Assembly: GCA_008632985.1 (NCBI GenBank)
Contig: QPGO01000049.1
Location: forward strand, 434,001 to 485,206
DNA from: Psammoneis japonica
Taxonomy: Eukaryota
DNA: 51,206 nucleotides
Reading direction: 5' to 3'
Shown here piece after piece: positions 29,131-51,206 of the stretch. Numbering within the stretch: the stretch's first letter is position 1; the number at the start of each line of letters is the position of its first letter. The translations under genes and the position numbers were made by a program. A model generated the notes under the pieces. It had not been told where the DNA came from. It was given only the letters and a program-made list of their open reading frames with translations, and did not search any database.

Positions 29131-29369
29131 GGCAGTGCGTGCAAGGGTCTCTGAAGCCAGCGAGGTCAAAGATTTGGCACAAGGTGACGCCGCGTGTGAG
29201 AGATCCACCCAGACAAGAAAGAGCTGAGAGACAAAAAAGGCGCAGCTTGAGACAGGCTTTGGGCTGGGTGCGCCAAGACATGTCGTTCTTTCTGGCAATT
29301 GGCTCACACAGGTTTGCACATGAGGAAAAAAGAGCACACATGCAGAGGTCAGCAATGTTGAATGACACC

Positions 29370-29560: not shown

Positions 29561-31074
29561 ACTTTTCTTGCATGGGTCATTGGGTCAGGGTCAGAGGGTT
29601 GGGGCCAGCTGTGTTGAACATCAGGCAAGATTTGAGCAGCTTGTGAGCAGAAATTCTTGATTTGCGGTCACCGTCAACACAGATGACACACGACTGCTGT
29701 CAGCTGACCCTGCCAAAACACCCGGCGAATTTGCTCATGTGGCCTCGTGTGCCCTGCTGGTGGCATGAGCTCAGCTGGCAGGCAGCTCTGGTGTGCCTTG
29801 CATCACCACCGCCACCTGCACAGACACTCGCTTGCACCTGGTGTTTTCCATTTGTCAAGTGGCTGCTCGCAACAGTGTGCTGTTCCAACTCCAGTGGGGC
29901 CAGCATCATCTGGCACACACCTGCAAATTGCCGCCTTTGCCGCGACGCTCCAAACACTTGCGCAGCTGCAAAAATTGAAAACTGCCCTTCTGCTGTGGGG
30001 CGAATGTTCTCATCTCCACACTCGATCACCAACGCTCTTCTGTTTGGCAGTGTGTCAGCAGCACTCATCGACAATGTGTCACAGAGTCTGTGCAAGTGCC
30101 AAAAAACAAAGCTTGTGCATCAAGCGCGCAGCAGCAGCGCATCAACAGTGCCTTGCGAACCCCAGCCCTGGCCCAGGCAAGGGGCTCCAACTCGGGATGC
30201 AAAACATCTGAAAGTGCTCCAAATCAAACCCAAGAATCTCTTTGTTGGGTGACCCTCAGCCCCTGCGCAAATGCCCGACAGTTGTTGCGCTGCTCCGTCA
30301 TTGTTGCCTTCTTGGCTTGTTCAGGGGGAAGTGCCGACATGAAAGAAAAAAACAGGAACCAGGAAGGGCCGCCCCAAAAGCCCGGAGACGAGCACACACA
30401 TGCAGCGCCACTTCTTTGAGGCCACTGCTTTTGTGCCGCGGCAGCGTGTTGTTTGTGAGCTTGGTCTGCAAAAGTGTGTGCTTGCAGCTCCTGCAGATTG
30501 GAGCTTGGCGGCGATTGTGGGGGCACCTGGCAACCGTGTTGTTGTTGCAATGAAACCTGTGGAGGAACTTTCTTTCATTAACGCCGCCGTGTCTGTCGCT
30601 CAACTTGCAAATGTGCCTGCTTGACATGAGCAGCTGCGATGGACTGACTTCGATGCGCACATGCCGAGTGAGCTCCTCTTCCATTGTGGGCCACCCTCAC
30701 ATCATTGATTTCCCTGAGGGCAAGCTTCGCATCTGTCTGGGGTGCAAGCAAGGGTGGGGGGGTGATGGAGGCGGGCATCCGAGATGATGAGGTGGTCCGA
30801 CAGCAGGGCTCAACTTTTTGCACCCCATGTCTCTGGCTCTTTTCCACACAGCCTTTTCATCTTTCTTTTGGCCTTGCGCCGCAGGTGGCAACGGCGGTGG
30901 ACAGGGCACTGCTTTCATTTGAGAGCTTGGGTGCAGCACTCTTGGCCCACAAGTTGTTTTTTTCTCAGAGGCCAATGTGGCATGATCGCTCGGGTGGTGG
31001 GGATCTGGTGGTTGATCTCTTGACAGCCGAGGTGTCATCATTGGACTTGGAACTTGACTGGGGGGTTTCTTCAA

Positions 31075-31365
31075 CTTGCAAATTTGCGTGAACTGGGCAC
31101 ATGCAGACATGCCCTCGATGCCAACTCCCATTGACAAATCACGACTTCCAAAAAAAACATGAAAAATTTTTTGCTCAACTCAGGACATTCAGCGACTTCA
31201 ACTTGGAAATTTGCATGAACTGGGCACACCCTGATGTGCCCTCGATGCCAACTCCCATTGACAGATCATGACTTAAAAAAAAAAAAACATGAAAAAATTT
31301 TTGCTCAACTCAGGGCATTTAGGAATCGTTGCGTGGACAGTTCATCGACTTTTCTCACATCATTG
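31075..31365 (+). repeat. Same dispersed repeat, two tandem copies
   Basis: Copies at ~31075-31190 and ~31201-31365 share aaatttgc.tgaactgggcaca...tgccctcgatgccaactcccattgaca...gctcaactcagg.catt. Confidence 0.8.
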
Positions 31366-32399
31366 CGTCAATGTTGTCAGTTCATTGGACACAACGTTGT
31401 CATCGAAGCAAGGCTCAAGCTGTGACACGGCAGATGCATGGACGACGATGCTGCTCAACTGCTTTTGGGTCAGGAGAAACTTTTTAGGGCCCATGACACT
31501 TTTGACCTGAGCCATGGTGATCCCCGAATTGACTGACACCCACAATTTAAGAAGTTGACAATGCACCACCCCGACTTCCGGTCGCCACGGTTGCACGCAA
31601 ACACAGAACTGGGCTTTGGACCCAGCTGCATATCAATTTCATATTCACGTGCATTGCTGCGATTTAACAACAGCGAAGAAAGATTTATCTCACAGTGAAT
31701 CAAGCGCATCAATGTGTGAATGCAACATTGAATCAATCTAACAATCACAATCAACATGCTCTGCAGCATTTAGAAAACACCTCAATGTGTGAATCCAACA
31801 TTAAATCAATGCGCAGATAGCTGTTGGAGATAGAATTTGTGCCAAAATTCCTATCCCTTAAAGTGATAATTTCTATCTCCAAAAGACATCTCGTGAAGGA
31901 CCCATGTCCCTCACCGAATCTCCGGTTGCCCTCGCTGCGTGTTTGATCCTGTTGGTGCATCTGTGCGAGGGGTGTCCGATGATCCTATTTATGGCCTCTC
32001 TGCGCGTGGCTGGCGTCTCTGCGCCTGTACGTTTTACTACGCTTCTTGCGTTTGACTTCGTTTCTTCATGTATGATTACGATCATACTTTGTTCCTTGAA
32101 GGAACGCTCATCTGACTCCTCATTGAAAGAGATCAGGAATTGCTCATTGCATAAGACAATCAATTTTTGCAGCGTTATTCAACAGTGCTACCTTTCCATT
32201 TCATACACCAAAAATAGTGAACAAACGAAAACAAAAGAGCCTGATGAAATGAAAACAGAAGGTTTTCAGTGAAAAGAATTTGGAGTTTCGGGTTATGGCT
32301 GGGTTTCCAAAGTCTTTACCGTACCATGGGTGTGATAAAAGATGTCAAAAACATTTGCTCAAGTGAACAAGCACATTAAATGATTGATTATAAAGCCAT

Positions 32400-35978: not shown

Positions 35979-36002
35979 CCTAACCCCAACCCTAACCCTA
36001 AA
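35979..36002. repeat. Short interstitial telomere-like (CCCTAA)n tract
   Basis: cctaaccccaaccctaaccctaaa, about 4 units with one imperfect. Confidence 0.5.
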
Positions 36003-36402
36003 GCCACTTCAATCCTCTGAGGTTGATCCTGAGGGTAAAATAGACAAGCTTGTTATCACAATACTTTCTAAGAGTTAAAAGAGATTAATGACTGCTTCAT
36101 CGGCAGTTTTCGTGGTTCACGTGGAACACAACATGAGCGCTGACGCATACGTTTTCTTCACGCTATTTCATTTCGGCATTTGTGCTTCAGATGCACACTT
36201 TCCAACATGCACACTCCTCCTGACCAAGGACAACATTGTTTGCATTTCAAAGTTTGCCCATCTTAGGCACTTGGATGTTCATGATAGTTTGACGATCTTC
36301 ATGATAGTTTGACGATCAACAATGAACTTCTTGCCCACCACAGGCTTGCCGGTCCCCAATCATCTTGTCTGTTGGGCAGAACTTAATCTCAAGTTCTCCA
36401 CG
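36003..36402 (-). mobile_element. Diverged Copia fragment (RNase H tail plus truncated 3' LTR) related to the element at 37356-44297
   Basis: Alignable to ~37855-38235 (e.g. ttgtctgttgggcagaac, gcacttggatgttcatgat, gacaagcttgtt.tcacaat). The LTR end is missing and abuts the CCCTAA tract. Confidence 0.85.
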
Positions 36403-37036
36403 CGTCACTTTGACCTTTCCAATTTCGTCTGCGTAAGTTTTGTCAAGCCAAGTCTAAACTCGTCCACATGCCACTTGTGTCCGACACGCTTCCCATCTCG
36501 CACACCCTCCGCCACTTGCAGTGGGTTGGACCACATGCGTCCCCACGCCACACGACACACTGTGCAGCCCAGGTGGCAAGCCCAGGTCACCGTCATTGGA
36601 GACCAGCACCAGGGTTGGGTGATTGGGAGGGTGCCAGCCATCCAATGGTGAAAAATGCAAGTCAAACGAGGAGAACAACTAACGCAAGTCTAACTTGCCA
36701 ATCAAATGAGGGGCTGACTGCCGACACAAGCCCAACGACATGCGTGTCACATGAGGAGAACGAAATTCTAGTTGCCTGCTGCCACAAGTCTAACATGGAT
36801 CGCGATCGATCTCCGCCAGAGTGGCACTTTCGCAAAAAACCTTGTGCTTGGAGCAAACGTTTTTGGGCTGCTCTGCAGGCTTTGCAACGACAACAAGGCA
36901 GCGAACCGGCATGGGTTGGAGATGGAAATGTTCGAAACCCAGCCACTGAACAAGATCGGCAGACAGCAATGAAAACAATTGCACCGGTTTGCCAGCACTG
37001 TGGTGGAGAATGATCTTTGCCAGCTGCGTTCTCCTC

Positions 37037-37355
37037 TCATGTCTGACATTGCGCAATGCCAACAGTGCCTCTCTTCTTTTCGATGTTTTCCAGTTCGTTG
37101 ATTTGGAGCTGCTCTGACGACATGGACCACAAGAATTTTCCTGTCACGAGGTTTCTCAGGATTCGCAGATGGCAACGGCGTCCAGGAATGAAGTGCTGGG
37201 TGCGGCCGATCTCAACAATCTTCTTGTCGGCAATTTGGAGGACAATGGCGCCATAAAAAGTTCCACGTTCTTTTCCACGTCCATGAATCACAAGCGGCAC
37301 GATGGCGAGTTTCAGCTTTTTCCAGTGCAAGAATGCTCGGTTGTCCCACTCAGCC
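37037..37355 (-). pseudogene. 3' part of the beta-propeller (Beta_propel/PF09826-like) gene, separated from its 5' part by the Copia insertion
   Basis: EWDNRAFLHW...LAIVP...FYGAIVL...EIGR..H...ILRNLV continues in frame from ...GSCSEA at 44298 once one CAGCC copy is removed. Confidence 0.85.
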
Positions 37356-37593
37356 TGTTGGAAATGGCGAATTAAAAGTTCAAACACCAAAATTAGATGG
37401 CGTGAAGAAGACGCATGCGCCAGCGCTCATGTGCTCCATGCGAAGCAACAAAACAGCCGATGGAAGCAGCCATTGTTCTCTTTTGACTCTTGGAAAGTGT
37501 TGCGACAACAAGCTTGTCTATTTTGGCCTCAGGATCAGACCTTGAAGGACTGAGGTGGCTCTGAAATAGTCACCAGAAGGACAAATTGCAACA
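37356..37593 (+). repeat. 5' LTR (238 bp)
   Basis: tgttggaaatgg...aaattgcaaca. Confidence 0.95.
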
Positions 37594-37821
37594 GCCAAAA
37601 GAGAATGATCCAGCTGAGAGCTGTGAAAAGAAAGCAAGAAAGAAAAGAGTCATTCTCACGGTGTGTGAGACATTTTGCTGCTTTGCCTTTTTGTCATGAG
37701 TGGAAGAGGCAGAGGTGGAACTGGCAACAGAAGCCAAGGAAGAGGACCCTCAGGAAGGGGAAACAAGAGTGGCAAGCAAAGCCACAAGGGCGCCAATGGT
37801 TGTGTCCACCATGTTGGAAGT

Positions 37822-38059
37822 TGTTGTAATTTGTCCTTCTGGCAACCATTCCAGAGCCACCTCAGTCCTCTGAGGTCTGATCCTGAGGCCAAAGTGGACA
37901 AGCTTGTTGTCACAATGCTTTCTGAGAGTTAAAAGAGAATGATGACTGCTTCCATCGGCTGTTTTGTTGCTTCACGTGGAGCACATGAGCGCTGGCGCAT
38001 GCGTCTTCTTCACGCTGTCTAATTTTGGTGTTTGAACTTTTGGCCCACCATTTCCAACA
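37822..38059 (-). repeat. Inverted internal 3'-type LTR (238 bp)
   Basis: Reverse complement of the other LTRs, preceded on the minus strand by the purine-rich gcaggagtg. Confidence 0.95.
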
Positions 38060-41000
38060 CACTCCTGCTGACCAATGACAAGATTCTTGCTGTTTCCAAA
38101 TTTGACCATCTTGGGCACTTGGATGTTCATGATGGCTTGACGATCAACAATGGACTTTTTACCAACCACTGGTTTGGTCATGCAATCTGCCATCATCTTG
38201 TCTGTTGGGCAGAACCCAGTCTCAAGTTCTCCTCGCTTGATGAGGTCAGTGATGCAAAAATGCTTGATGTTGAAATGTCTCGTGCGTTTGCCCAAGCTGG
38301 CCTTTCCATTTTGTTCTAGTTTCATGCAACTTTGGTTGTCTCGATGCATGATGTTGCGCTTGACTTCAAAACCTTGAGCTTCAGTGAAACGCTTGGTCCA
38401 AAGGACCTTTGCCAAAACATCGTCTCCTGTGACAATCTCTGCTTCTGTAGAACTCCTGGTGTTGATCTTCTGCTTTGTGCTGACTGATGTAATGACACCT
38501 TTTCCAAGGGTCATGGCAGAACCTGTGTGGCTTTTACAGTCCGGATGGACTGCGAATGCGGCATCCGTGTGCCACTCGACGACAACTTTGTCTCCAGTCG
38601 ACATGACTGCGACATCAAGCTGGGTTGTCTTGAGGAAATTCATGAGCCTCACCAGCTTTGGCCAACCCGATTCGTTCAGATCCTTGACCCTGGTGGAGAG
38701 AAAAGCAATGCCAGGCTGAATGTCCTGTCTGGCTCTCTTGCACACAAACATGCCCTTCATCACAAAAGTGCAAAATGCTCGAGCATGCTTGAGATCTAAT
38801 TTCTTGGCTGTCTCATCCACCTTGTTGAGCTTCTCGCTCCACGGGCAATCCACGTCACCCGACAATTCTTCTGGGAATTCCTTGAAGAACTCCTTGGCCA
38901 TTCCTTGCACACAAAGCACCATGTCAACTTGCAGTGCTCCTGGAATGGAGCAACCTAGAGTCATGGCCAGACAGTCGTGCCTCTTTCCACGCGTGACTTT
39001 GACCTTTCCGATCTCATCCGCGTGAGTTTTGTCCAACCAAATCTTGAATTCATCGTTGACCTTGCTGTCAACATGACCAGACTTTAAATCGTCCACATGC
39101 CATGTCACAGTGTGTTGTTTTCCATTCACGATGCGGTTGGCGACACATGGATCACAAGGATCAATCTCAAATCCGATTCCTTCGATGTCCCTGCTGAACT
39201 TCTTGTGACAAAGAATGGAGGACACCAGCATTCTGCAGAGCGCCTTCAACATTTCAACGTAGAGAACCTTGTGTTTGCCTTCGCACACGACGTGGTCCTG
39301 GCAAGTGTCTGGATCCAATTCCAGCAACATGTCCACCATCCTTCCACGGATCTTCATGATGATCTTTTCATCCTTGACCTCGATGTCCGTTTGCACAAAT
39401 GCGCTCGGGATGTCCGCTGTCATGACGTCTCTGCCTTGCTTGGCATCAATCACTCCTGCAATGAGAGTGGATTCTGTGGATGCTGTCGGACTGGCGGTTT
39501 CGTCTCGGTCCATGCACTCTCGTTGCGTGCTTCCGTTTGCACACAACCTTGACTTGATTCGTCCATCTCTCTTCTCTGTGAGAAACATGAGGCTCTCCAT
39601 GGCTCTCTTCCTCTCCAGAGGAGTCATGTCCTTCATGTGAATGGGTTTGAAAACCACTCTGTCATGGATTTGCTTCAGCTCTGACACTGCCGACTTGTGG
39701 CCTTCTTCTCCAAACTTCTGGAGTCCTCGTGCCAAGCTGTGAGTTTGAACAAATTGCTGTGCAACTTCATCAGTGGAAATCGAGCTAACCTTCTCATTCC
39801 ACTGACACATTGTCATGGCCATGATTCTGGCCGTTTCTAAGCTGCACTCTTCTTCTTGTGAATGAGCTTGAGTCTGTAGATGGCATTGGCAGTCTCCCAA
39901 TCTAACTGGAGGTTTCAGAGTCCTTCCTGCCCTGGATGTAGCAACAGGCTCTTCTTGGACACTTTCTTTGGTTTCACTCTGCTCCTCTCCAGATTCGTCC
40001 TCAGATTCCAGGTCTTTCATTTCGTCGATGATCTCTTGCACTTCTGGAGAGTGTTCCTTCTCTTGTTCCAGCCTCTGTTGTTCATCAATGTGGTCAATCA
40101 TGTCGTCAATTTCTTGTGAAATTCCGCTGCCGTCTGATGGTTGAGAACCAACTTCGTCATTGTCTCCAAGATGCTCATCATTGGAGGTTTCTTCTTGAGT
40201 CTCGTCTTGTTCTTCACTGATGCAGCTGGCTTCTTCATCCAATTCTTGTTCTCGAATTATGTCTTGCAGCTCTTCTTGACTAACTCTGTCGTAGTCTCCC
40301 CAGTCTGGCTCTTCTTCCTCGTCGTCTTCAGTTTCAATGTCTTCTTCTAGATCACAATCTTCGTCTTCAAATTGATCTTCATCATGATCCACTCCTGCAA
40401 GCCAAGCACTGTGGTGCAAAACAGTTCCAGTGCGGTTCTGAATCTTGAGACCGTTGGGCATCTTGTTCATTTCAGCCAAACGATGAACCTGCTTTGTGAT
40501 GGCGGGGGTGATGGGCACAGGTGTGACCTTGCGACGAGTGATCTTCTTGCCGGTTTGCAAGTGCAGCAACTCATGTCCAATCTGGTTGCTGTCGGTGGGG
40601 CGCAAATGAATGCAACCCAAGGTCCGTGACTCTTGGGTGTTCTTGGGGTCCGGGTCATTGTGAGCCTGCACACAAGTGCCGAACGTGATCTTGCAGCTCT
40701 TGTCACAGTCTAGATTCTTTTGATGGAGAATCATTCTCGGACTGTAATGTTTGGAAACGCCGTGCTTGGTTGGAAAATAATTGAGCTTCTTAGCAGCTTC
40801 GGTGACCATGACTTCGACCATGAGTTTTGGCAGATGCTTGAATGGCAGCTGATGATAGACTGCCCTGGCACGTTCTTGAATAACTCGGTTGTTTCTTTCG
40901 GCTTCTGGGACATGCTCTTGAGCATGTGCGCAGTTCATCTTGAGATCAAACTTGTCTTCTAGTGCATTCCCAATGGGCCTGAATTCGTTGTCACAACGAA

Positions 41001-41079
41001 TGCGTGTGACCTTCAAATCGGCCTTGTTGTAGACTTGCAGCACATCTTCCAGAGCTTCTTGATGAGCCAGTTGGGTCAA
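37972..41079 (-). pseudogene. pol: Copia pol (integrase-RT-RNase H), TA-mutated
   Basis: RIRCDNEF, EHVPEAERNNR (INT); KRDGRIKSRLCANGS, ADIPSAFVQT, DPCVANR, TWHVDDLK (RT); TDAAFAVH, NTRSSTEAE, RDNQS, ADCMTKP (RNase H). Tyr is nearly absent, replaced by Cys/His. Confidence 0.95.
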
Positions 41080-42930
41080 GTCCTTGAGCGGTTGTGCCGT
41101 GCGATAAAAAATGTTTCATGACACTGTGGTGAGGAATGGCAATCCATTCACCTTGAGACCGTCCAGGCAAAGAGTGACCTTGTGTTGTGCTGCAATGAGC
41201 TCCTTCAGGATCTCCACGCAGTCTTCTACAACTGGCTCCGGCTTCTGCCTTGTGACCTTGCCTTTTAGACTTCCAATGTCTGGTCCAAAAATCTTCTCGG
41301 CCAAATCTACATCCTCCGTTGTGATGGGATTGTTCTTGATGCTGTTCATGCAAATGATGGCCTTCAGATTGTTCACGGTTGGGTTTCCCAATGCGTGCAA
41401 CAATTCCCCAGCCCTCTTGGCTTTCTCGAACTGTCGTGGAGTGTAGAACTTCTTGTTCTCTTCCACACTCTGCACAAATTGGAGCTGAGTTCCAGTGTCG
41501 TTTGTCTTGGGCTTGTAAACGTGCAGCCCTTTTTCCGTCCTCCTCGAACCTGACCTTCTTGTTGGGGAGATGAACGGTGAATGCATTGTCTTGCTTAGAA
41601 TCACTTGTGATTCTGTGTTTCTTCTTCATGTCAGAGCAAGCAAAAATGTTGGTGATTGCATCTGGGTTGAACCAAGTCTCGCCAAACCCTGGCACCGTGG
41701 CCTTGTGTGTCGTGACTGGGACTCCGCCATTGGTGTGCAAATGCATGGCTTCATCCAACGGACTGATGTCTGCAACGAGCTTCTCATTGCAGAAGATTGT
41801 GGTTGTGGACTGGTTGTCCAATAAAATCCAGTCTCTCATGCTGCCAGATTGATCCTGGTGGAGAGATGCATCGATGTGCATGCCAGCCCATCCTGAAACA
41901 GCAGATTTTGTTCCAGTGGATTCTTTGGCAGAAGAGTTGGCTGCACTGGCATCGTCACTTGCCTGAGCGTTGCTTGCTTCTTGCTTGGCTTTGGCCTTGT
42001 TGATGGCCCATTCTGCTTGAGGTTTTCCTTGCCTTTCCCAGCACTTGTTGGAATTGTGTCTGGCCTTGCCACAGCAGCAACACTTGCCTTCTAACTGAGT
42101 GAAGGACAGCGTGATTTCTTGGTTTTCTTCTTGTTTCTTGGAGTCAGAGTTGTTGTTTTGATTGTTCCTGTTACGGCAGTTGTCAGGCTGACCAACACAG
42201 TCAAAAGTGTGGTTGCTCAACACCGTGTTGGCTTCCACAATGGACTTGGGACATTGGTTGTTCTTGAGGGACTGCTGAGTGTTCAATCCTGTTAGAATTG
42301 ATCCACACTTGCGCTGGTCTGCATTCTCCAAGTGCATGTAACCCATCAATTGGCTGAACGACTTTTCTTGACACTTCTTGACAGAATCCGCATTGTGCTC
42401 GTCAAATTCTGACATGCCTTGCACTGCCTTGGTGAGGACAATTGGTCCTCCAATGTGAGACTTCATGATGTCCCTTGCAACCCTGAATCTCTTGGTGCAA
42501 TCTTGGAGACTCTCCTTCTCCTTCTGCTTGGTTTCCAGCACCGCTCTCATTGAATCTGAGATGACAGCCATGTCACACCTGTGCTCTTGGCAGTTCAATG
42601 CATGCTCCTTAATGGCCTTGAGCAATTCGACAGGATCGTTTTTAATTTTGGTTTGGAACTGTGTTCTTGCTTGAATCTTGTTCTTCATGGCCTTGGAGCA
42701 TCTCTCCCAGAGCAAAGCACAAGCCTTGACAAGGTTGTTCTCACAAGTTTGGGTCCTCTTAATGTGAGCATCAAATTCTGTCTTGAACTCAATTTCATGC
42801 TGTTTGTTCAATGGCATGTCCACCTTGTCATCTCCAGTCAAGCTGACCTGCAAAGTTGGCTTCTTAGAACTCATGTCACATGGAGTGTAAGTGTTGAGTG
42901 CAGTTGCAATGTCATTTCCAAACTCATGAG
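41080..42930 (-). pseudogene. gag: Copia gag-protease region, 5'-truncated and frameshifted
   Basis: EFGNDIATAL; zinc knuckle KCCCCGKARHNSNKC (cf. CYCCG..GH....C); protease WILLDNQST; FYTPRQFEKAKRA, NNPITTEDV.LAEKIFGPDIGSLKGK. Frameshifts near 41535 and 41100. Confidence 0.9.
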
Positions 42931-44058
42931 TCGAAGGAATCGGATTTGAGATTGATCCTTGTGATCCATGTGTCGCCAACCGCATCGTGAATGGAAAACA
43001 ACACACTGTGACATGGCATGTGGACGATTTAAAGTCTGGTCATGTTGACAGCAAGGTCAACGATGAATTCAAGATTTGGTTGGACAAAACTCACGCGGAT
43101 GAGATCGGAAAGGTCAAAGTCATGCGTGGAAAGAGGCACGACCATCTAGCCATGACTCTAGATTGCTCCATTCCAGGAGCACTGCAAGTTGACATGGTGC
43201 TTTATGTGCAAGGAATGGCCAAGGAGTTCTTCAAGGAATTCCCAGAAGAATTGTCGGGTGACGTGGATTGCCCGTGGAGCGAGAAGCTCAACAAGGTGGA
43301 TGAGACAGCCAAGAAATTAGATCTCAATCGTGCTCGAGCATTTTGCACTTTTGTGATGAAAGGGCATGTTTGTGTGCAAGAGAGCCAGACAGGACATTCA
43401 GCCTGGCATTGCTTTTCTCTCCACCAGGGTCAAGGATCCGAATGAATTGGATTGGCCAAAGCTGGTGAGGCTCATGAATTTCCTCAAGACAACCCAGCTT
43501 GATGTCGCAGTCATGTCGGCTGGAGACAAAGTCATCATCGAGTGGCACACGGGTGCCACATTCACAGTCCATCTGGACTGTAAAAGTCACACAGGTTCTG
43601 CCATGACCCTTGGAAAAGGCATCATTGCATCAGTCAGCATGAAGCAGAAGATCAACACCAGGAGTTCTGCAGAAGCAGAGATCATCGCAGGAGACGATGT
43701 TTTGGCAAAGGTCCTTTGGACCAAGCGTTTTGTTGAAGCTCAAGGTTTTGAAGTCGAGCGCAACATCATGCATCGAGACAATCAAAGTTGCATGAAACTG
43801 GAACAAAATGGAAAGGCCAGCTTGGGCAAATGCACAAGACATTTCAACATCAAGTGCTTTTACATCACTGACCTCATCAAGCGAGGAGAACTTGAGATTA
43901 AGTTCTGCCCAACAGACAAGATGATGGCAGATTACATGACCAAACCAGTGGTTGGTAAAAAAGTTCATTGTTGATCGTCAAGCCATCATGAACATCCAAG
44001 TGCCCAAGATGGTCAAATTTGGAAATGGCAAGAATCTTGTCATTGGTCAGCAGGAGTG
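42931..44058 (+). pseudogene. pol: Second copy of Copia RT (3' half)-RNase H, inverted duplicate of 38060-39185
   Basis: Near-identical to the minus-strand copy (EGIGFEIDPCDPCVANR...ADYMTKP), with small indels near 43360 and 43960. Confidence 0.95.
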
Positions 44059-44297
44059 TGTTGGAAATGGTGAGTTAAAAGTTCAAACACCAAAATTAGA
44101 TGGCGTGAAGAAGATGCATGCGCCAGCGCTCATGTGCTCCACATGAAGCAACAAAACAGCCGATGGGAAGCAGTCATTGTTCTCTCCCAACTCTCAGAAA
44201 GTATTGTGACAACAAGCTTGTCCATTTTGGCCTCAGGATCAGACCTTGGAGGACTGAGGTGGCTCTGAAACAGTCACCAGAAGGATGAATTACAACA
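44059..44297 (+). repeat. 3' LTR (239 bp)
   Basis: gcaggagtg|tgttggaaatgg...gaattacaaca|cagcc. Confidence 0.95.
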
Positions 44298-46063
44298 CAG
44301 CCTCGGAGCAGCTTCCTCGGAGTGTCCACACTGTCAGTTCCTTTGGGTTTGTTTCGTCGCTCATGTTGAATGGCGACACCTTGGTTCCCAATGTCCTTCC
44401 ATTTGCAACGTCCTTTCCAACACCGAGGACTCTCCCATCCTCCACTCTGTGAAGATGCGTGCTGAAGCCAGGGATCTTGAGCTCTCCCTTGACTTCAAGC
44501 TTCTTTGGATTTGCCAAGTCGATGATGTGGAGCGGATCCGTTTCCCCAAATGTCACAACGCATGCAATGTCCTTGTGATGTCGCACCGCAAAGATGCGCT
44601 CGCCAACGCCTGGGTCTTCAACAAGGCCCACAGGCTTCAGCAAGCCCTTGTCATCGTCGATCTTGAATGAAGTGACCCTGCTCTTGCTGAGCGACCGCCC
44701 TGTCCACCAAGAGGCCCCGACGGTCGACGCAATGAAGAAGTGGCCGTCGTTCTCGTGCACAGAGAATCGGTTGAGGATGCCACCCTGTGAGCAGCAAACA
44801 AAGACAAGACTTGAGCAAAGCCATGCATTGAAATCCACTCGGGCAGTGAAGCACGCTTGCTTGCGGTGATTTGACCAGATGCTCTGTGTGTCGCCCCCGT
44901 TTTGCTCAGGCTAAATCGGTGGATGCGTGTCTGGCAGTTCGGACCCCAACGGTTGGCGCTGTTGGGCACATTGCCAAATTGGAACTCATTGGTCGTCACG
45001 TGCATCAACTGCTTGGTCACGTGCAAAGCCTCGGCGTTGGAGACAATTGAGTTTGATGACGTTGGAGTCATGAGTTTGTTGAGCGGCAGCGTCACTGCTG
45101 AGAGCATCAAAAAGGCCGAGAACACATCTGGCAAATGGCACAGGTCACTGCATGACCCGCACACGCCAACCTGTGTTTGCTTTCCCTTTTGAAGCTTGTG
45201 GGTTGGCAGCCAATTCCCAGCCCTTGAGCATTCGATGATCTCCTGGTTCCACTTGAGTGTCTGATCTGACTTGTGTGTGCGGTTGGGCCTGTGCAGCCAG
45301 ATGGACTGCAAAGGTTGAATTTGATCACGATTCGTGCAACGCCATCTGTTTCACGCACCTTGACGTATGATCCTTCAAGATGAAGCATTGAAATCAGCTT
45401 CGGCTTGCAGTTCTTGATGCGGATTTGGTGCAAAACAGTCAAGTCCTCACCACGTGACGGATGGCGTCTGTGCTGTTGTTGGACCTTGCGTTTGTAGTTA
45501 CGGTCGCGACCAATGACGATGACAAAGTTCTTTTCGAGCAGCATGTCGTCCGGGCGGGCAGGCAGTTGGATTGTTCCAGCAACTCTTCCGCCCCCACCCT
45601 CGTTGAGGACCTTGATGACGGCCAACTTTGAGCCCGAGATCGCGCACACCATCTCACCATCAGTCTTGACAATGTCGGCCTCGTCGATGCCCTTTACCTG
45701 GACATTGGCACCCGAGAAGTCCTTGCCCTCCTCCTTGCCTTCTTTGTCATCTTCATCGTCGATGAAAGAATTGCCTTTGGTGATGTTTCCCTTTTCAATG
45801 ACTTTGGGGTCTTCGAAAGGCTTGTAGAGCTTTGGCCCAGCAGGCCCGCCCGGACAGCCTGGCTTGCCGGCAAACTCTGGATTTCGGGTCGGTGTGCAGG
45901 CGTTGCGGGAGTTGAGGCCGCATGGACCGATGAGCGGCAGCACCTTGTTGATGTGGCAGTTGTTCATCGCGGTGCAGCTGTCGAAGCTGCTGATGAGCTC
46001 TGGCTGCGAGGTGCAGGGCGACAGAACCAGGGACAAGGCGAGGATGAACGGTGACAACATCAT
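44298..46063 (-). pseudogene. 5' part of a secreted beta-propeller domain gene (Beta_propel/PF09826-like), TA-mutated, with decayed intron 44785-44864
   Basis: Signal peptide MMLSPFILALSLVLS; family motifs FSGANVQVKGIDEADIVKTDG, GGILNRFSVHE.DG, GERIFAVR, VVTFGETDPLHIIDL, GELKIPGFSTHLH; frameshift near 45312. Confidence 0.88.
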
Positions 46064-46399
46064 CGGGGCTGGAAAGAGCAGTGGTTGTTGACAGTTGGTA
46101 ACTTCTTAGGATTGATTGTTTGTGGGAGTGTTGGCGAGAGCAGTCGTTCGAAATCGGGTGATGGGTGATGCGAAGCCGAATTGCTGTGTTCTTCCAACTT
46201 CTCCTCCAGCATGTCAATCAATCGTCAAACACTGAGTTAAGTCATTTCACAAATGCCACACTGCAAACAGTGATTTGAGAATTAAATGATGGGCAAGAAA
46301 GGACTTGAGCTCAGACGTTGTCAATCGATCCGTGACCTCGAACCCACAATCACATGACATGACATTGCTTGGGGCCCTCTGCTGGCAGGAGCACGCAAA

Positions 46400-47170
46400 C
46401 ATTTGTGTGGTGAAAGGGCAATGATGGTCGATTTGAACAATGATCCTCTGTCAAATGTTTCTTTCAAAATGTCCGACCGATGCTGGATTCTCGTTTCTGA
46501 CTGGGGCGGTGTCAGGGAGCAGACATTGCAATGATCATTGACAGTCATTTGCCCAACCTTTTTCCGATGGAGTGCAACAAAGATTTGTTGTGCCATGTGC
46601 CAAAAGACCCATGTGTGTAGACACCCCCCTGCTGTTTTCTTGCATTCTGATTGGATCTGCTGCGTCACAATTTCAAGCGCAGATGGATGATGATGGCTTG
46701 AGGATGATCCCGAGTTGCCCGAATTCCCCCCGCACTGTAGACCCATTCCAGCTGCCATCCTTCATCGACGCGGCATCCACCACTGGACATGCCCATGCCC
46801 TTGCTGGTGCCACCATCGACCACCGCTGTGCCATCCAAACCCTCACAGCCACCAGCTCCACCGAGGCCGAATTCATTGCTTGTGTCACCGCGGCCAAACA
46901 AACCTTGTGCCTCTGTTCAGTGTTGGTGTTGGGCTTTCCTCAAAAGGGACCTGCACCCCTGCACACTGACAACTCATCGGCTGTCAAGAGATGGTCAATC
47001 ACCAAATCCCCACCGAGTGATCACGGCACATTGACACCTGACATTTCGCAATCTAAGACTGGCAGGAGGCCAACAAGATTGTCGCCAGACATGTTCCAGG
47101 TGTCATTGACCCTGCCAATGTGCTTGTCAAGGTTGTGGGATGGATCCTGCATGCCTGCCATGCTCACCGA
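46400..47170 (+). mobile_element. Degenerate Copia RNase H fragment from a different family
   Basis: FIDAA-STTGHAHALAGATIDHR..IQTLTATSSTEAEFIACVTAAKQ...LGFPQKGP..LHTDNSSA. Left boundary approximate. Confidence 0.85.
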
Positions 47171-47949
47171 TTGATGGAACACTGCCATTGAACAGATCAG
47201 TGCTTGTGCCCCTGGACCATTGCAGGGCGATTGGCGATTGTCTGTTGCACATTTCCCATCTGTCACACTGTTCTCTCTTCTCTTCATGCATCTTTGATGC
47301 TGTTTTTTTTCTCTTGATTGGCATCTGCTGATTGCTCATCAGGGGAGGGTGACAGAGCTGACCGAGTCATGAGTCGTGCGTGCCTGTGAGGTGGCTCACA
47401 GTCACACACCCAGTGGACAGACATTGTCACAAGCAGCGGATGTGCTTCCTCACTTGTGTCAACTCTCCTTGGGGAGAAGTTGCAAAACTGCTGTGGAGGC
47501 AGGAATTCTGGCACAACCTCTTTCTCCAACAGATGCTGTGGCTCCTGCAAAACCAAGCTGATGGCTCGCACACGTGTGCCACCAGCTCCCATGGCTTCAC
47601 TGCTTTTGAACACACTGATTTCCACTCTGAGTGGTTGTGAGCCCAAGCTTGCATGTGTGCCCACTCACACACATGCAAAACTTTTGAGCCACACTTGCCC
47701 ATGGTGGTCAGCAACAATGTCATGATTTGGGCATCACAGCTTGCAGCTTGCACAGGCGTGACACACTCAAATGTCAGTGCAAATTTTTTCAAACCCTTTG
47801 CTGATGCTGTTCATGCTGTGTGGACCTCATGTGCCCCTGATTTAACAGGCACCAAGCAAACAATTAGGTTCAAAAAGGAAGAGTGAGTTAGAGGCAAGTC
47901 AAGGATGACAGTGAAAGAGGAACATGGAACTTTGTGTGGAGGAAAACAG

Positions 47950-49500
47950 TGCTCTGCTCTGTTGTTCTGGCATGAGAGCAGCTGACAAAGAAAGTCTGGC
48001 TCCATTGCTTCCTCCATTGGATGACACTCTCCAGGATGGCACAATGGAGTTGCAACATTTCTTTGAAAGCCAGGATGATGTTGACTGTTGCATGCTGGCC
48101 AGTGGTGAAAACACCAGCCGGGCTCCCAACCGACAGTGAAACCTTTGATTTCAGCCAGCTTTGCTTGTTAATTGAGCACAAGTGGATGGAGACAGATGAG
48201 TCAAAGACTTGGAGCAGTTGTGCTCCAACATTCTAGAACAGCATCAACAAGAGCAAGATTCCTTCAAGCTTCACTCTTGCAACAATCTTTTCATCAGTTC
48301 TGCCTGGACTGTTGGCAGTGAGAAGCAATTGTTCCACATGTTGCCCCACGTTGTGAGGGTGGATGCAACTTCTCACTCCAACAATGAGAAGAGGATGCTC
48401 CTCACATTTTCAGCCAGGTCACCGGATTGATCACACTTTGTTTTTTGCATGTGCACTTGCCAGACCAGACTCAACCCACATCTCGCTGGATGTTCAAAGA
48501 TGTGTTTCCAACACTTTTGGACAAGCGGTCCCTCCAACACATCCACATGATGTTTGCCGACAGTGATTCCCCCAAGTCATTGAAGAGCTCCGTGATGCCA
48601 TCCACAGCCATGTGCCTTCAACCTGCCAAGCAAGATGTGGATGGCACATTGTTGAAAAAGGTTGGATGACTCACTGCCCCAGAGAAAAAAGCATCTCTGC
48701 GGGCCAAACTTGTGAGTGATTCAAGCTGTCAGTTGCCACAACAAAGGCACAGTTGTGCTCAAGCACTGTGAAAAAGCCAACAACTCAAGTCATGAAGGAA
48801 CCAATTTAGGCAGCACCCCAGTCCTGAATTTGCAAAACCTGGCAACAACTGCAACTTTTCTGGCAATGCAGTCAGATGCAAAGGTTGCAGAAATGCTGTG
48901 TGAATTAAGTGGGATGGTGCACACATGGTGTCTTTGGTTGAAACTTCCAACCGTCAATCATGTGCTGACCAGGTGCAAGGGCATGCTCTCCAGATGTTGG
49001 AAAGCTGTCCATTGTCATGAGGTCAGGTGCAAGCTGAATGGTCAAAGCAATGACCCCAACTGCGCAGCATGGGAAGCAGCTTGCAAAGTTACAAATGACA
49101 AAGAAAGCAACACACAAGGAAACCCCAAAGACCAAGAATGCCAAGAACAAGAAAACAATTCTGAGGAAAGCAACCCATGCTTCAAGCACATCCCAAAGCA
49201 CCAGCGGGTGCTTGTTGTCTGCATGGATGGATCATGAGTTCTTCATTGTGCCTGTGCTGAGTTCCAACGCACAGGCATGGGATGCATTCATCAGTTGTCC
49301 ATGATGAAGTTTGAGTTGGGCCAGCAATTTAAAGGATTCTCTCATCTCATGACGTGTCCATTGCATGGTGGCAAAAGCATTCCCACCATGCTTTCAGTGG
49401 GAACAAGCAAGTGGATGGCCTGGATGACATTTTCAAAGCTTTGTTGGAAAATGATGCAAAGGGGCCATGGATGCCAGATCACTTTGATCCAACAGTTGTG
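47950..49500 (+). mobile_element. Degenerate Mutator-like (MULE) transposase with SWIM zinc finger
   Basis: LFHMLPHVVRVDATSHSNNEKRMLLTFS (first catalytic Asp region), RWMFKDVFPTLL...MFADSD, RCGWHIV (CxxH, ~48634-48654) and LHCACAEFQRTGMGCIH (SWIM, ~49241-49291) in the expected order. Boundaries approximate; lies in a depleted block running to ~51100. Confidence 0.75.
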
Positions 49501-51206
49501 CCCAAGCCAACCACCATGACAGAGTCTGTTTTTGACATGCCCTGCAATGTCATGTCATCTTTGACCAACTGCTCTGAGGAACAAGCAAAGCAAGCAGTCA
49601 AATCCACCATGCCATTGTTCAACACACAGCCACTGCTGAATTTTCACAGATGCCCAATGTCAACATGCAGGATGAGGGTGATGGAGACCAAGACCTGGTG
49701 CTCAGTTTCCTGGATGATGCTCGCCAATCCGGTTGTGAAGTGTGGTCCCAAAATGACACTGAACAACAAGTCATGCATTGCAACCAAAGTGCTTGCAACA
49801 TTTTGGTGCCAAGGACAAACACTCTTTGTGGTCTGTTTGTGTCTCAAGATGTGTCCTGTGTGGACATGCCAGACATCAAACCCTTGGCAACAGCAACAGA
49901 CGAGGCAATTGCAGAGATGTGAGGCAAGCTGCACTCTCTCCATGTGTCTTTGTCAGACTGCCAAGACAACTCTGCACCACAATGGATGTTGAATTGTGGC
50001 AAGCAAGACACAAAGCACTGATGCACCCACACACGAAAATGGTCTTGCTTGAATGGTGGCACATGCAGTGGTGCACCTGAATCATTGGGGGGTGTTGCAC
50101 ACACTGAAAGAAAAAGCTCAACTGCAACCCACTTTCAATGCCTGACACGGTGATCAAGTCACAGACCAATGGCATCTCAAAGAACTTTGCTTGACAAATC
50201 AACACCATCACCATGACCAAGTGGTTCCAACAGACTCACTGGGTGATCTGCAGCAAGCCATTGCTTGGGAGTTGTGAGTTCTCTTGGGAACTTGAATGAC
50301 TTCAAAGTCTCCACACTGGGCAAGGAGCTTGCACTCATGTCAACCTTCATGTTCACATGGTGAGCTGTCTCATCTTTTTCTGGCAATTCACCACCACAAG
50401 GGAATCTGTCAATGACATGCTCACACATTCCTGTGTTGTCTTGTCCAGGCAAATGAACAGCAAGAGCCTTCATGCCGATGCACTCAAACATGGGAGTGTG
50501 CTCTTAAACAAGGCATTGCAAAACTCTTTGCTCTTCATGGTTGTCTTGTTTCTTCTCCTTGCAAAGGCATGGCTTGAGCCACCTCTCTCTGCAGTGCTCT
50601 GCCAAGCCAGCACGTTCTCTCCCAAGATGATGTTGCAGTGTCTTCCCAAAGGCACAAATCCTGGGTTCACTTTTCAACCGTGCTTCACAGGAAGCTCACA
50701 ATTGATGGCTCCTGTGACTGCATTGGCTGGTTTGACAACAGCCTGTGTGGCCATCTAGGAAGGCAGGGTGCCTGTCTTTCCCTTCTGGCCAACATCATGA
50801 GTGCCGGTCAAATTGCCGCATTGTTTGACAAGCCTTGTTGATTTGGTCCAGCTGAGGAGGAACCACTCAAACAGAAATCTCTTTCCATGGTGCAGGCATG
50901 CTGCAGCCCTTCCAGTCATCTTTGGGCATGACATCTGCATCAGGCTTGAGTGCATTGCTGAAATGATGGAAGTCCTCTTGTCCTCCATGTTCCTCCTTGC
51001 TTTGCCCGGCACATTCTGCAAATGTCAAAGAATGCACCCAGCCCACTTTCATTCTCACAAATGTTGAAAATGGAAAGCCTTTGGCTTTGCAAAACAGGGA
51101 GCTGGAACAATTTCGTAGAGGATCACATGCAGACATGTGCACGCGAAACGTGGCGCGATCCAAAAATCTGTTGATGTCACAGTTCAGCAGTGCAAGGTCC
51201 CACCTG

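Follow-up and report, generated by a model that had tools for sequence, protein, structure and literature searches.

Near-complete loss of TA dinucleotides from a nested copia-like retrotransposon, the gene it splits and neighbouring blocks in the nuclear DNA of a diatom

The window, a stretch of 51,206 nucleotides from Psammoneis japonica (contig QPGO01000049.1), is diatom nuclear DNA in which ordinary sequence lies beside blocks that have lost nearly all of their TA dinucleotides. The normal blocks carry recognisable host genes (acetyl-CoA synthetase, cyclin, prefoldin, DUF6824 and TPR-methyltransferase). The rightmost depleted domain contains two copies of a retrotransposon, elements A and B, and a β-propeller gene that is split by the insertion. 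The features, in window coordinates, are as follows.

1..1600, no strand: TA-depleted block at the window start, TA o/e 0.07
4601..8000, no strand: TA-depleted block, TA o/e 0.07, CG o/e 0.20
11957..13197, no strand: stretch of 1.24 kb with zero TA, flanks TA-rich
23951..31500, no strand: TA-depleted block, TA o/e 0.04, CG o/e 0.38
36002..36455, minus strand: older copia fragment, comprising LTR4 (36002-36207; 35960-36225, reverse complement, in the LTR comparison) and a pol end
36701..51206 (left edge ~36456 by TA listing), no strand: TA-depleted domain with the elements, the pseudogene and anonymous DNA
37046..37366, minus strand: continuation of the β-propeller pseudogene beyond the insertion, residues 557-660 of P0241
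37351..37355, plus strand: left CAGCC of the target-site duplication, seen in the sequence itself
37356..37593, plus strand: LTR1, the 5' LTR of element A (TGTTGG...CAACA)
37594..37821, plus strand: leader and first ~41 gag-pol codons of element A (ATG ~37696, MSGRGRGG...), placed against the N-terminus of the homologue consensus
37822..38059, minus strand: LTR2, the 3' LTR of the nested inverted element B
38060..42952, minus strand: gag-pol of element B, residues 57-1622 of homologue P0002
42930..44058, plus strand: 3' part of pol of element A, P0002 residues 1272-1612
44059..44297, plus strand: LTR3, the 3' LTR of element A
44298..44302, plus strand: right copy of CAGCC, the same pentamer directly after LTR3
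44299..46063, minus strand: β-propeller (PF09826) pseudogene, N-terminal and middle part, TA-depleted

Element A is a copia-like (CoDi-like) LTR retrotransposon inserted in the β-propeller gene, which resumes exactly on the far side of the insertion. It has the hallmarks of Ty1/copia, namely direct LTRs (TGTTGG...CAACA), the 5-bp target duplication CAGCC and a gag-pol with RVT_2. The RVT_2 match is weak in Pfam (27.6 bits, below the cut-off of 31.6). The gag-pol has 149 homologues, nearly all with PF07727 and the best at 1153 bits, and shares 50-60% identity with proteins named from Fragilaria and Nitzschia. Its start in element A is interrupted by element B, a second copy that is inverted, 5'-truncated and nested in the first, and whose own gag-pol is open over 1047 aa and 682 aa. 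The segments 42930..44058 and 38060-39185 form an inverted repeat. Over 1367 bp the inverted arms show 71 transitions and 1 transversion, a ratio that speaks for hypermutation and not for age. The older copia fragment is 76-78% identical and still TA-rich; it provided LTR4, the outgroup for the LTR comparison.

About 28 kb of the window are nearly without TA (28.3 kb depleted against 22.9 kb normal, or ~55%). Between depleted and normal DNA, the o/e ratio is 0.07 vs 0.61 for TA and 0.39 vs 0.93 for CG, and 1.69 vs 1.21 for TG and 1.70 vs 1.20 for CA, such that the gain of TG and CA in the depleted blocks balances the loss of TA and CG. Individual blocks range from 0.00 to 0.14 in TA o/e, which is near saturation, and their edges are abrupt, falling within tens of bases. 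These edges suggest that targeting goes by sequence unit (a repeat or an insert, for example) and not by the spread of a chromatin state. Non-coding DNA in the window can be TA-rich, as at 8001-9000 (TA o/e 1.0) and in the flanks of 11957-13197, where one TA occurs per 5-10 bases; such DNA and the unmutated copia fragment adjoin depleted DNA. The loss of TA extends far beyond the LTRs, into the element bodies, the host gene and other blocks. The targets that we saw are the copia element, the split algal-type β-propeller gene and blocks of no recognisable content, the latter anonymous and non-repeated. No protein family was found in the block at 23951..31500, and in the depleted blocks outside the domain of the elements 53 ORFs gave zero Pfam family matches. 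As TA-free DNA lacks TAA and TAG stops, it holds long spurious ORFs in all six frames.

Every substitution among the three LTRs is a transition: 21 separate LTR1 from LTR3, 28 LTR1 from LTR2, and 23 LTR2 from LTR3. The 36 variable columns are likewise all transitions, which has a chance of 4.6e-7 if two thirds of ordinary changes are transitions. Variable pyrimidine-purine sites, 17 in number, hold 27 of these columns, and such sites make up 108 of the 238 columns (binomial p 3e-4). The remark in an earlier note that most differences are of the TA/TG/CA type is borne out, with 20 of the 36 columns in that class, 7 in CG-involving sites and 9 of other kinds. All eight sites that the note had quoted read as written at their LTR positions, and four further ones were found (LTR1/LTR2/LTR3): cctTGaa/cctCAga/cctTGga, tttTGac/tttTAac/cccCAac, gtcTAtt/gtcCAct/gtcCAtt and aatTAaa/gccCAaa/gttTAaa.

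The note's reading of these sites as TA rather than CG in ancestry is supported, though not for every one of them. LTR4 reads aaaTAgcg, catTAatc, tctTAgaa and aagTAttg at four sites where LTR1-3 carry TG or CA. A TA ancestor thus stands for six of the eight quoted sites (sites 1-4 by LTR4, sites 5 and 8 by a surviving TA), while sites 6 and 7 (gtCA/TG/CA and ggaCA/CA/TG) are undecided. Over the 17 variable sites of the LTR alignment, LTR4 and the surviving alleles give TA at 9, involve CG at 5 and leave 3 undecided. Polarised by the outgroup, the changes between LTR1 and LTR3 run mostly from A/T to G/C, as read from the alignment columns; a minority of LTR changes are C>T or G>A at CG. Changes outside TA also occur, namely GAT to GGT three times, TG to CG three times in LTR1, and one run of three T to C (TTT to CCC) in LTR3. 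At four sites with TA in LTR4, all three LTRs share one derived state, and some hits may therefore have preceded transposition.

The three LTRs had been taken together as paired. In fact only LTR1 and LTR3 form a pair, as LTR2 belongs to element B. For this pair, the claim that mutation followed integration is upheld: LTR1 and LTR3 flank a single CAGCC-duplicated insertion yet differ at 21 positions, and the host gene around them is mutated too, which supports change in the chromosome after integration.

We then turned from nucleotides to codons. Of 41 columns with a conserved tyrosine (TAY), 7 are still Tyr in the window copies, 11 are His (CAY), 18 are Cys (TGY) and 5 hold other residues, whereas the same test in 71 normal relatives gave Tyr 1171, His 20, Cys 3 and other 150 (n=1344; Fisher p 6e-23). 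TAY has thus become CAY or TGY at 29 of the 41 columns in copies that retain 661 of 741 other conserved residues. Element B by itself has 33 conserved Tyr columns (Tyr 4, His 9, Cys 16, other 4), with both outcomes interleaved, for example at residues 952 and 954. Across both halves of the β-propeller gene, 9 conserved columns read Tyr 1, His 6 and Cys 2. We regard this test as decisive: independently of the LTRs, it shows TA changed to both CA and TG inside the same copies. Both strands are affected, as the interleaved His and Cys columns (11 and 18) and the matching TG and CA ratios indicate; with the two product types interleaved within one copy, editing of an RNA or cDNA intermediate on one strand is excluded, in line with the earlier argument. 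In two Tyr columns, elements A and B carry the same change. The counts of His and Cys are unequal across loci (chi-square 12.6, p 0.028), which a simple symmetric model does not predict.

A slower loss of CG to TG or CA runs in the same blocks and is separate from the loss of TA. Depleted DNA has the signature of methyl-CpG decay, with a CG o/e of 0.39 and polarised changes from CG to TG or CA. CG ancestry is clear in the LTRs at, for example, ccaCGtg and gaCGca, and codon 43639, where the consensus is Thr, is ATG (from ACG) in one of the copies and ACA in its counterpart; some TG/CA sites therefore had no TA ancestor. Changes of Arg to Cys and of Pro to Leu are present too. The two losses can be told apart among related metagenome loci: L074 has a TA ratio of 0.13 and a CG ratio of 0.75, the first 1.5 kb of the mosaic locus L046 have CG at 0.00-0.05 and TA at 0.66-0.69, and many loci are CG-poor with normal TA.

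The flanks of the TA sites differ between lost and surviving positions in an enzyme-like manner: purine-TA-pyrimidine (RTAY) is nearly erased and the survivors are mostly pyrimidine-TA-purine (YTAR). Among 131 TAs surviving in depleted window DNA, 69 are YTAR, 57 mixed and 5 RTAY, against 193, 515 and 269 of 977 TAs in normal window DNA (p 2.5e-18). YTAR is not immune, as tctTAgaa is mutated in all three LTRs. Three of 75 related metagenome loci (L044, L057 and L074), which come from unrelated assemblies, have a TA o/e of 0.00-0.13 together with Tyr-to-His/Cys changes and the same context bias as the window. Their 46 surviving TAs comprise 27 YTAR, 17 mixed and 2 RTAY, against 2350, 6746 and 3900 in normal loci of the set (p 2e-12). 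Because TA and RTAY are self-complementary, A-to-G on one strand is indistinguishable from T-to-C on the other.

A sequencing run (X1) contained 0.41 of the sampled words of the region, and 323 of 1390 aligned contigs were at least 99% alike to the stretch. Among 40 matches listed for window TG/CA positions, its contigs have TA at 8 places, CG at 9 and both letters changed (CA for TG) at 1; at several listed places every aligned contig differs from the window. Word depths in the tens and a longest contig of 315 kb suggest accurate reads.

The best explanation overall, and in our judgement a probable one, is that an enzyme edits chromosomal DNA after insertion, at TA and in locally targeted regions. 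The sequence shows that element A, carrying the inverted and truncated element B, inserted in the β-propeller gene with a 5-bp duplication. After integration, the element, the split gene and other sharply bounded blocks lost almost all TA through A:T-to-G:C transitions on either strand, yielding TG or CA. The local editing would serve to disable selfish or silenced DNA. Most likely, a polynucleotide adenosine deaminase of the ADAT/TadA type would deaminate adenine to inosine, which is then read as G. The natural substrate of the tRNA-editing ADAT/TadA enzymes, A34, as far as is known always follows U33. The process is probably of the same type as the TpA hypermutation of Bigelowiella natans, and the accompanying CG loss is probably ordinary deamination of methylated cytosine.

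A related and unlikely alternative keeps the targeted hypermutation but has thymine attacked at TpA, being oxidised or otherwise modified, for instance to the 5-hydroxymethyluracil of dinoflagellates, so that it mispairs with G and T changes to C. The sequence outcome would be the same, as TA to CA on one strand is TA to TG on the other, and T-to-C would also describe the three LTR1 changes of TG to CG and the TTT that became CCC in LTR3. Against it, our analysis gave no result showing thymine modification in diatoms, and GAT-to-GGT shares an A before a pyrimidine with the main motif, an argument made weak by symmetry. Adenine deaminases with an inherent preference for A after U or T (ADAT/TadA) are, to our knowledge, universal. 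The authors of the B. natans preprint point to one such enzyme. Decay of methylated CpG alone, with every TG and CA derived from CG and the TA alleles as double hits, would fit the CG depletion of the same blocks (o/e 0.39), the clearly ex-CG positions (ccaCGtg, gaCGca and codon 43639), the Arg-to-Cys and Pro-to-Leu changes, and the CG read by X1 contigs at 9 places among the 40 matches listed. However, Tyr codons cannot derive from CG, and the 29 of 41 conserved tyrosines that are now His or Cys refute CpG decay as the sole cause. Furthermore, LTR4 has TA at four quoted sites, TA o/e (0.07) lies below that of CG although CpG decay removes no TA, and L074 is TA-poor with CG at 0.75. We rate its probability as close to nil. 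Editing of RNA or cDNA before integration by an ADAR- or APOBEC-like enzyme, passed on to new copies, would account for the four commonly derived LTR sites with TA in LTR4 and for the two Tyr columns alike in both elements, and some changes may indeed come from a source copy. As the main cause it is excluded by the LTR pair, with its 21 differences within one insertion, and by the flanking gene, a mutated pseudogene that is not mobile; both strands are affected inside one copy and anonymous non-repeated blocks are depleted as well. We hold it to be extremely improbable.

It is also very unlikely that targeting is absent, i.e., that TA changes to TG or CA through a neutral bias across the genome and selection alone keeps TA in genes. 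Such a bias would agree with the recognisable host genes lying in the normal blocks and with the depletion of ~55% of the window. TA-rich non-coding stretches nevertheless exist (8001-9000 and the flanks of 11957-13197), the old, non-functional copia fragment at 36002-36455 keeps its TAs beside the depleted domain, the edges are abrupt, and young copies differ by 71 transitions to 1 transversion. We consider it just as improbable that the pattern is a sequencing or assembly artefact, in which modified TpA and CpG of silent DNA are miscalled strand by strand. Strand-dependent miscalls at a palindromic dinucleotide would produce precisely TG or CA; X1 contains only 0.41 of the sampled words, and at several listed places all of its contigs differ from the window. 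On the other hand, the signature, the Tyr-to-His/Cys changes and the survivor context recur in three contigs of unrelated metagenome assemblies, 323 of the 1390 X1 contigs are at least 99% alike, and the depths and the 315-kb contig suggest accurate reads. His and Cys alternate within a few codons (952, 954), which a strand-majority artefact would not do at the scale of a read, and zero TA in 1.24 kb would demand that every TA was both modified and miscalled. In B. natans, moreover, this type of process was measured by Illumina sequencing (bioRxiv 10.64898/2026.01.13.699255).

As far as the literature searched shows, TpA-specific chromosomal hypermutation has been reported once before, in a 2026 preprint on this rhizarian alga, and we found no report of it in diatoms. 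In mutation-accumulation lines, two regions of integrated giant-virus and virophage DNA had gained 231 de novo mutations, of which 230 were A>G or T>C, each of these at a TpA; coding sequences poor in TpA showed an enrichment of reverse transcriptase and DDE domains, and the authors name an ADAT2-like candidate (Mettrop et al., bioRxiv 10.64898/2026.01.13.699255). Much of this resembles the window: changes that are nearly all A>G or T>C, giving TpG or CpA by strand, particular regions affected with the rest ordinary, TpA-poor clusters rich in CpA and TpG, and reverse-transcriptase or transposase genes among the TpA-poor coding sequences. The host there is a chlorarachniophyte (rhizarian), here a diatom (stramenopile), and the targets there are viral regions, here a pair of LTR retrotransposon copies, the interrupted host gene and anonymous blocks. 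Depletion is deeper in the window (TA o/e 0.00-0.14, against 0.45 in the viral region), and the TpA focus, to which changes were restricted there, is not exclusive (GAT>GGT and TG>CG, three times each). CG is lost alongside and RTAY is lost with YTAR surviving in the window; the main text of the preprint does not mention CpG, nor did we find a mention of flanks in it. Finally, the evidence there is de novo mutation in the laboratory, whereas the window holds a historical footprint.

Fungal RIP resembles the window in that it hypermutates repeated or selfish DNA in the chromosome, after integration, and by transitions only; it too prefers a dinucleotide, acts on either strand, ruins coding capacity and exaggerates divergence. 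It requires duplicated sequence and a sexual stage. RIP, however, changes C to T, mainly at CpA, and makes TpA, whereas the window loses TpA and gains G:C; in place of the raised TpA of RIP, TA o/e is 0.07 against 0.61. Methyl-CpG decay shares with the window the change of CG to TG or CA and CpG depletion in the same blocks, but can neither remove TA nor turn Tyr into His or Cys. ADAR and APOBEC3 likewise leave clustered, deaminase-type transitions in retroelements. ADARs are, as far as is known, metazoan. Both act before integration on RNA or single-stranded cDNA and on one strand, which would leave LTRs identical and flanks untouched; we found 21 LTR differences, a mutated host pseudogene and changes on both strands. 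ADAR prefers U before the edited A (cited in bioRxiv 10.64898/2026.01.13.699255). Diatoms are described as having RID-related DNMT4 genes (PMC9998398), which could bear on the CG part only. With the CoDi-type Ty1/copia elements of diatoms, the window copies share a gag-pol of ~1620 residues, RVT_2, short LTRs and a 5-bp duplication, but they are chimeric, with the inverted B within A, and hypermutated; the words 'deamination', 'TpA' and 'point mutation' are absent from the text of that survey (Maumus et al. 2009, PMC2806351).

The same footprint and flank preference in a diatom and in three environmental contigs argue that an enzyme-based genome defence is widespread and not peculiar to a single strain. 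More tentatively, and with somewhat less than even confidence, we propose that diatoms and chlorarachniophytes, and possibly much of SAR, share a DNA adenine-editing defence. It would prefer 5'-R-T-A-Y-3', recognise defined chromosomal units (transposons, the sites where they insert and further silenced inserts), and convert almost all TA steps of both strands to TG or CA, making it a mirror image of RIP with the opposite chemistry, driven by a natural DNA adenine deaminase. The pattern suggests that a natural enzyme with a defined DNA motif edits adenine, or thymine, there, and a motif-specific editor of this kind would be of interest for base-editing technology. For diatom genomics, dating by LTR divergence is badly inflated here, as the earlier note had anticipated, given 71 transitions to 1 transversion between the inverted arms. 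Hypermutated transposons can also escape domain searches, as illustrated by RVT_2 falling under the Pfam cut-off in this element.

By dinucleotide counts the window is a mosaic, comprising about 28.3 kb of almost TA-free DNA and 22.9 kb of ordinary composition. The gain in TG and CA in the depleted DNA (0.48 and 0.50) offsets its loss of TA and CG (0.54 and 0.54). A microsatellite-like composition was ruled out, as the depleted sequence is complex and does not consist of simple repeats.

Observed/expected dinucleotide ratios in the depleted and normal DNA of the window
TA: depleted 0.07, normal 0.61
CG: depleted 0.39, normal 0.93
TG: depleted 1.69, normal 1.21
CA: depleted 1.70, normal 1.20

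The edges of the blocks are abrupt: positions 11957-13197 contain zero TA, while their flanks have one TA per 5-10 bases. This 1.24-kb stretch contains about a dozen CG and ends immediately before the TPR-methyltransferase frame (13201-14778). The large depleted domain has its left edge at ~36456, the exact end of an unmutated copia fragment carrying an older, less mutated LTR copy (LTR4). The TA content of this fragment (36002-36455) is normal; either it was inserted later than the hypermutation or it is not part of the targeted unit.

The recognised host genes in the window encode an acetyl-CoA synthetase, a cyclin, a prefoldin, a DUF6824 protein and a TPR-methyltransferase. The best named relatives of the synthetase are from diatoms (63-78% identity; including Grammatophora, Cylindrotheca and Nitzschia), which identifies the window as diatom nuclear DNA. 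A dinoflagellate origin, considered at first, was discarded because these genes resemble those of diatoms. The LTRs belong to a Ty1/copia (CoDi-like) element, and their region comprises the following features:

36002-36455, minus strand: older copia fragment with LTR4, 76-78% identical
37366 to 37046, minus strand: resumed part of the beta-propeller (PF09826) gene, from homology
37356-37593, plus strand: LTR1, repeat of 238-239 nt
37822-38059, minus strand: LTR2, repeat of 238-239 nt
37972-41115, minus strand: 1047-aa frame, an open part of the gag-pol of a nested, inverted copy (element B), with 149 homologues and PF07727 in nearly all
44059-44297, plus strand: LTR3, repeat of 238-239 nt
46063 to 44299, minus strand: first part of the beta-propeller (PF09826) gene, from homology

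Since the beta-propeller gene is split and a CAGCC pentamer precedes LTR1 and recurs after LTR3, 37356-44297 represents a single insertion (element A), with LTR1 as its 5' and LTR3 as its 3' LTR. Residues 399-561 and 557-660 of P0241, a beta-propeller homologue, match opposite sides of the insertion. Inside its LTRs, element A retains a leader, about 41 codons (MSGRGRGG...) and the last ~340 codons, and its middle is occupied by the inverted, 5'-truncated element B, which comprises LTR2 and homologue residues 57-1622. The three LTRs are not those of one element: LTR1 and LTR3 are paired, and LTR2 comes from the nested element B. The named homologues of the 1047-aa frame are from Fragilaria and Nitzschia (50-60% identity); a Pfam RVT_2 match was sub-threshold (27.6 bits versus a cut-off of 31.6). 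The chimeric insertion also holds a 1.37-kb inverted repeat, which could form a long hairpin, if transcribed.

Long open frames in the depleted blocks result from the scarcity of TAA and TAG stops in TA-free DNA, and such spurious frames would mislead gene finders. At 35000-46000, 35 frames of at least 100 aa were counted in 11 kb, spread over several reading frames of either strand. For the other depleted blocks, Pfam gave no credible family for 53 of the 56 ORFs listed (at least 110 aa; three ORFs overlapping a 93-bp tandem repeat were excluded), and self-comparison of the window revealed no repeat copies within it. At 28553-29080, a depleted block contains about five tandem copies of a 93-nt unit (64-83% alike), and their translation is a coiled-coil-like repeat.

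Pairwise, the LTRs differ by 21 (LTR1 v LTR3), 28 (LTR1 v LTR2) and 23 (LTR2 v LTR3) substitutions, transitions only. All 36 variable columns are transitions (chance 4.6e-7, assuming two thirds transitions among ordinary changes), and 27 of them are contained in 17 variable pyrimidine-purine sites (p = 3e-4, with pyrimidine-purine sites spanning 108 of the 238 LTR columns as baseline). The TG, CA and TA triplets on which the earlier note had based its TA ancestor were all found in the LTRs exactly as quoted. Used as an outgroup, LTR4 has TA at the first four of them (agaTGgcg, catTGttc, tctTGgaa and aagTGttg in LTR1) and at two more sites. Together with the alleles surviving in LTR1-3, it supports TA at 9 of the 17 variable sites, while 5 of the 17 involve CG and 3 show TG/CA only. 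A TA ancestor therefore holds for the majority of sites, but some TG/CA sites derive from CG by CpG decay.

At alignment columns 33, 109 and 172, CG is present in LTR1 alone, with TG in LTR2, LTR3 and LTR4. These LTR1-only CG are T-to-C changes at TpG, making new CpGs. At 37441 and 37503, both LTR1-only CG, T is found in all aligned contigs of X1, a sequencing run covering part of the window. In LTR3, three neighbouring T-to-C changes at alignment columns 151-153 (tcttTTTAac to tctCCCAac) look like a short processive burst on a single strand.

The direction of change was followed at tyrosine codons (TAY), where TA to CA gives His and TA to TG gives Cys. A column was taken as conserved when it held Tyr in at least 80% of 17 homologues.

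Residues found at conserved Tyr columns
Element B: 33 columns; Tyr 4, His 9, Cys 16, other 4
A fragment: 8 columns; Tyr 3, His 2, Cys 2, other 1
Window copies pooled: 41 columns; Tyr 7, His 11, Cys 18, other 5
71 normal metagenome relatives: 1344 columns; Tyr 1171, His 20, Cys 3, other 150

The window copies thus differ sharply from the normal relatives at Tyr columns (Fisher p 6e-23), with other conserved residues retained at 661/741 and 20892/24042, respectively. A first analysis of the 1047-aa frame had found 4/23 Tyr columns kept versus 336/374 non-Tyr conserved columns. When codons of elements A and B were polarised by the consensus, two Tyr codons were found changed to His in one element and to Cys in the other. 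CG-derived differences include a Thr codon that has become ATG in one element and ACA in the other, as well as Arg-to-Cys and Pro-to-Leu. The comparison also revealed a GAT-to-GGT change (Asp-to-Gly), seen three times and arisen independently in both copies, which is a secondary non-TA hot spot sharing the "A before a pyrimidine" context. The Asp-to-Gly sites lie at window positions 43161, 43450 and 43552 and at residues 167, 721 and 817 of the 1047-aa frame.

The paired LTRs of a retrotransposon are identical when inserted; LTR1 and LTR3, the pair of one insertion, now differ at 21 sites. The split beta-propeller pseudogene of the host is also mutated, with Tyr 1, His 6 and Cys 2 at its 9 conserved Tyr columns and 154/177 conserved columns retained overall. 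The inverted arms of elements A and B (1367 bp) are distinguished by 71 transitions versus 1 transversion; the differences comprise CA/TG 14, TA/TG 8, TA/CA 3, CG/CA 8, CG/TG 7 and 18 others. Along element B, His and Cys outcomes interleave (16 runs versus 13 expected, from a hand count of 27 calls, 18 Cys and 9 His), so that the strand hit varies site by site. The LTR pair differences, the host pseudogene hits, the inverted arms and this interleaving establish a chromosomal, post-integration process on both strands. The hypermutation rate is far above background. The earlier note had likewise placed the mutation after integration and on both strands, and had argued against ADAR/APOBEC-type editing of an RNA or cDNA intermediate. 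All three points are borne out: the same LTR pair, pseudogene, arms and both-strand hits exclude intermediate editing as the main cause.

An assembly artefact is argued against by the same footprint in 3 of 75 related public-metagenome loci with copia genes.

Metagenome loci with the footprint
L057: TA o/e 0.00; 15 Tyr columns; Tyr 0, His 8, Cys 2
L044: TA o/e 0.07; 31 Tyr columns; Tyr 1, His 10, Cys 7
L074: TA o/e 0.13; 12 Tyr columns; Tyr 3, His 1, Cys 7

A further locus, L046, is a mosaic that switches from normal to depleted at ~1500 and is CpG-free over its whole length. The almost TA-free spans are 1-6122 in L044, 1-2310 in L057 (2310 bases without any TA), 1-2351 in L074 and 1500-5164 in L046. 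No LTR pairs were found in the depleted contigs L044, L046 and L074. The His:Cys ratio is heterogeneous across six loci (chi-square 12.6, p 0.028), being 9:16 in element B, 2:2 in the A fragment, 6:2 in the beta-propeller pseudogene, 8:2 in L057, 10:7 in L044 and 1:7 in L074 (pooled 36:36). A local strand bias, e.g. from the direction of replication or transcription, is a possible cause. A simple +1-base motif model, which expects a Cys bias for Tyr codons after a pyrimidine, was dropped, as the split was only 9:5 (hand count).

Run X1, the one DNA run listed for the region, contains 0.41 of the region's sampled words (no RNA run was listed), and its aligned contigs include many paralogues: 1390 align to the stretch at 85% or more, of which 323 at 99% or more. 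Taking the window as reference, X1 shows 71 A>G, 75 T>C, 108 C>T and 90 G>A changes, along with 56 transversions. Among the 40 of 400 differences listed, X1 has TA at 8 and CG at 9 window TG/CA places, and reads CA for window TG at 1 place. Its summed depth over the pseudogene is 139-178 versus 35-75 for single contigs, and there are hints that the pseudogene is present in more than one copy. For the copia family, the summed depth is about ten times the depth of the flank.

TA and CG depletion correlate in the window (Spearman 0.84, 51 one-kb windows). CG loss and TA loss are separate processes, and the two come apart in both directions. The element and pseudogene have TA down to 0.09-0.14 with CG still at 0.5-0.8, and L074 has CG 0.75 despite TA 0.13. 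Conversely, the first 1.5 kb of L046 have TA 0.66-0.69 despite CG 0.00-0.05, and many related metagenome loci are CG-poor but TA-normal.

The bases flanking TA sites were compared in depleted and normal DNA.

Flanks of TA sites
Surviving TA, window depleted DNA: YTAR 69, mixed 57, RTAY 5, total 131
TA sites, window normal DNA: YTAR 193, mixed 515, RTAY 269, total 977
Surviving TA, three depleted metagenome contigs: YTAR 27, mixed 17, RTAY 2, total 46
TA sites, normal metagenome loci: YTAR 2350, mixed 6746, RTAY 3900, total 12996

Depleted and normal flanks differ in the window (p = 2.5e-18) and in the metagenome loci (p = 2e-12). Among window survivors no ATAT is left and GTAC is at a tenth of its share, while TTAA and CTAA/TTAG are more than three-fold enriched. 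The preference is not absolute, tctTAgaa being mutated in LTR1, LTR2 and LTR3. Its presence in organisms that are unrelated suggests that they share an enzyme family.

These data show that TA is hypermutated to TG/CA on both strands, in a targeted manner, after integration and with a flank preference, and that CpG decay takes place as well. Targeting may work by recognition of sequence units rather than by spreading chromatin, as suggested by the sharp block boundaries and by the copia fragment left intact next to one of them. The responsible enzyme is probably an adenine deaminase acting on DNA, with the resulting inosine then read as G; in tRNA adenosine deaminases the substrate A is always preceded by U33. 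Alternatively, thymine at TpA could be modified and then mispair, a chemistry compatible with the sequence because TA and RTAY are self-complementary.

Adenine deamination of DNA, with inosine read as G, is also what has been proposed for the closest case, Bigelowiella natans, in a 2026 preprint whose main text names an ADAT2-like candidate (bioRxiv 10.64898/2026.01.13.699255). According to that text, two integrated viral regions gained 231 mutations in mutation-accumulation lines, of which 230 were A>G or T>C changes, every one of them at a TpA, and TpA-poor coding sequences were enriched in reverse transcriptase and DDE domains; diatoms, CpG and flanking bases do not come up in it. Fungal RIP is a functional analogue of opposite chemistry, as it creates TpA. 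RID-related DNMT4 genes, their function described as unknown, occur in diatoms (PMC9998398). In the literature searched, including a check of PMC2806351 and 10.1101/2025.10.24.684338 for its terms, TpA hypermutation of diatom DNA was not found. The present case is genome editing of this very recently described kind in a second eukaryotic lineage. Its new details are the near-saturation, the mutation of a host gene next to the insertion, the sharpness of the edges, the preference for RTAY and the occurrence in environmental contigs. The earlier interpretation is upheld overall, except that LTR2 is unpaired, some sites are CG-derived and the phenomenon is domain-wide rather than a peculiarity of the LTRs.

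Elsewhere in the window, the DUF6824 gene (15923-17407) contains an internal 300-nt duplication at 16556-17164 (92%), and a 61-nt tandem repeat rich in CTAG/AGCT lies directly upstream of it, at 17636-17818.
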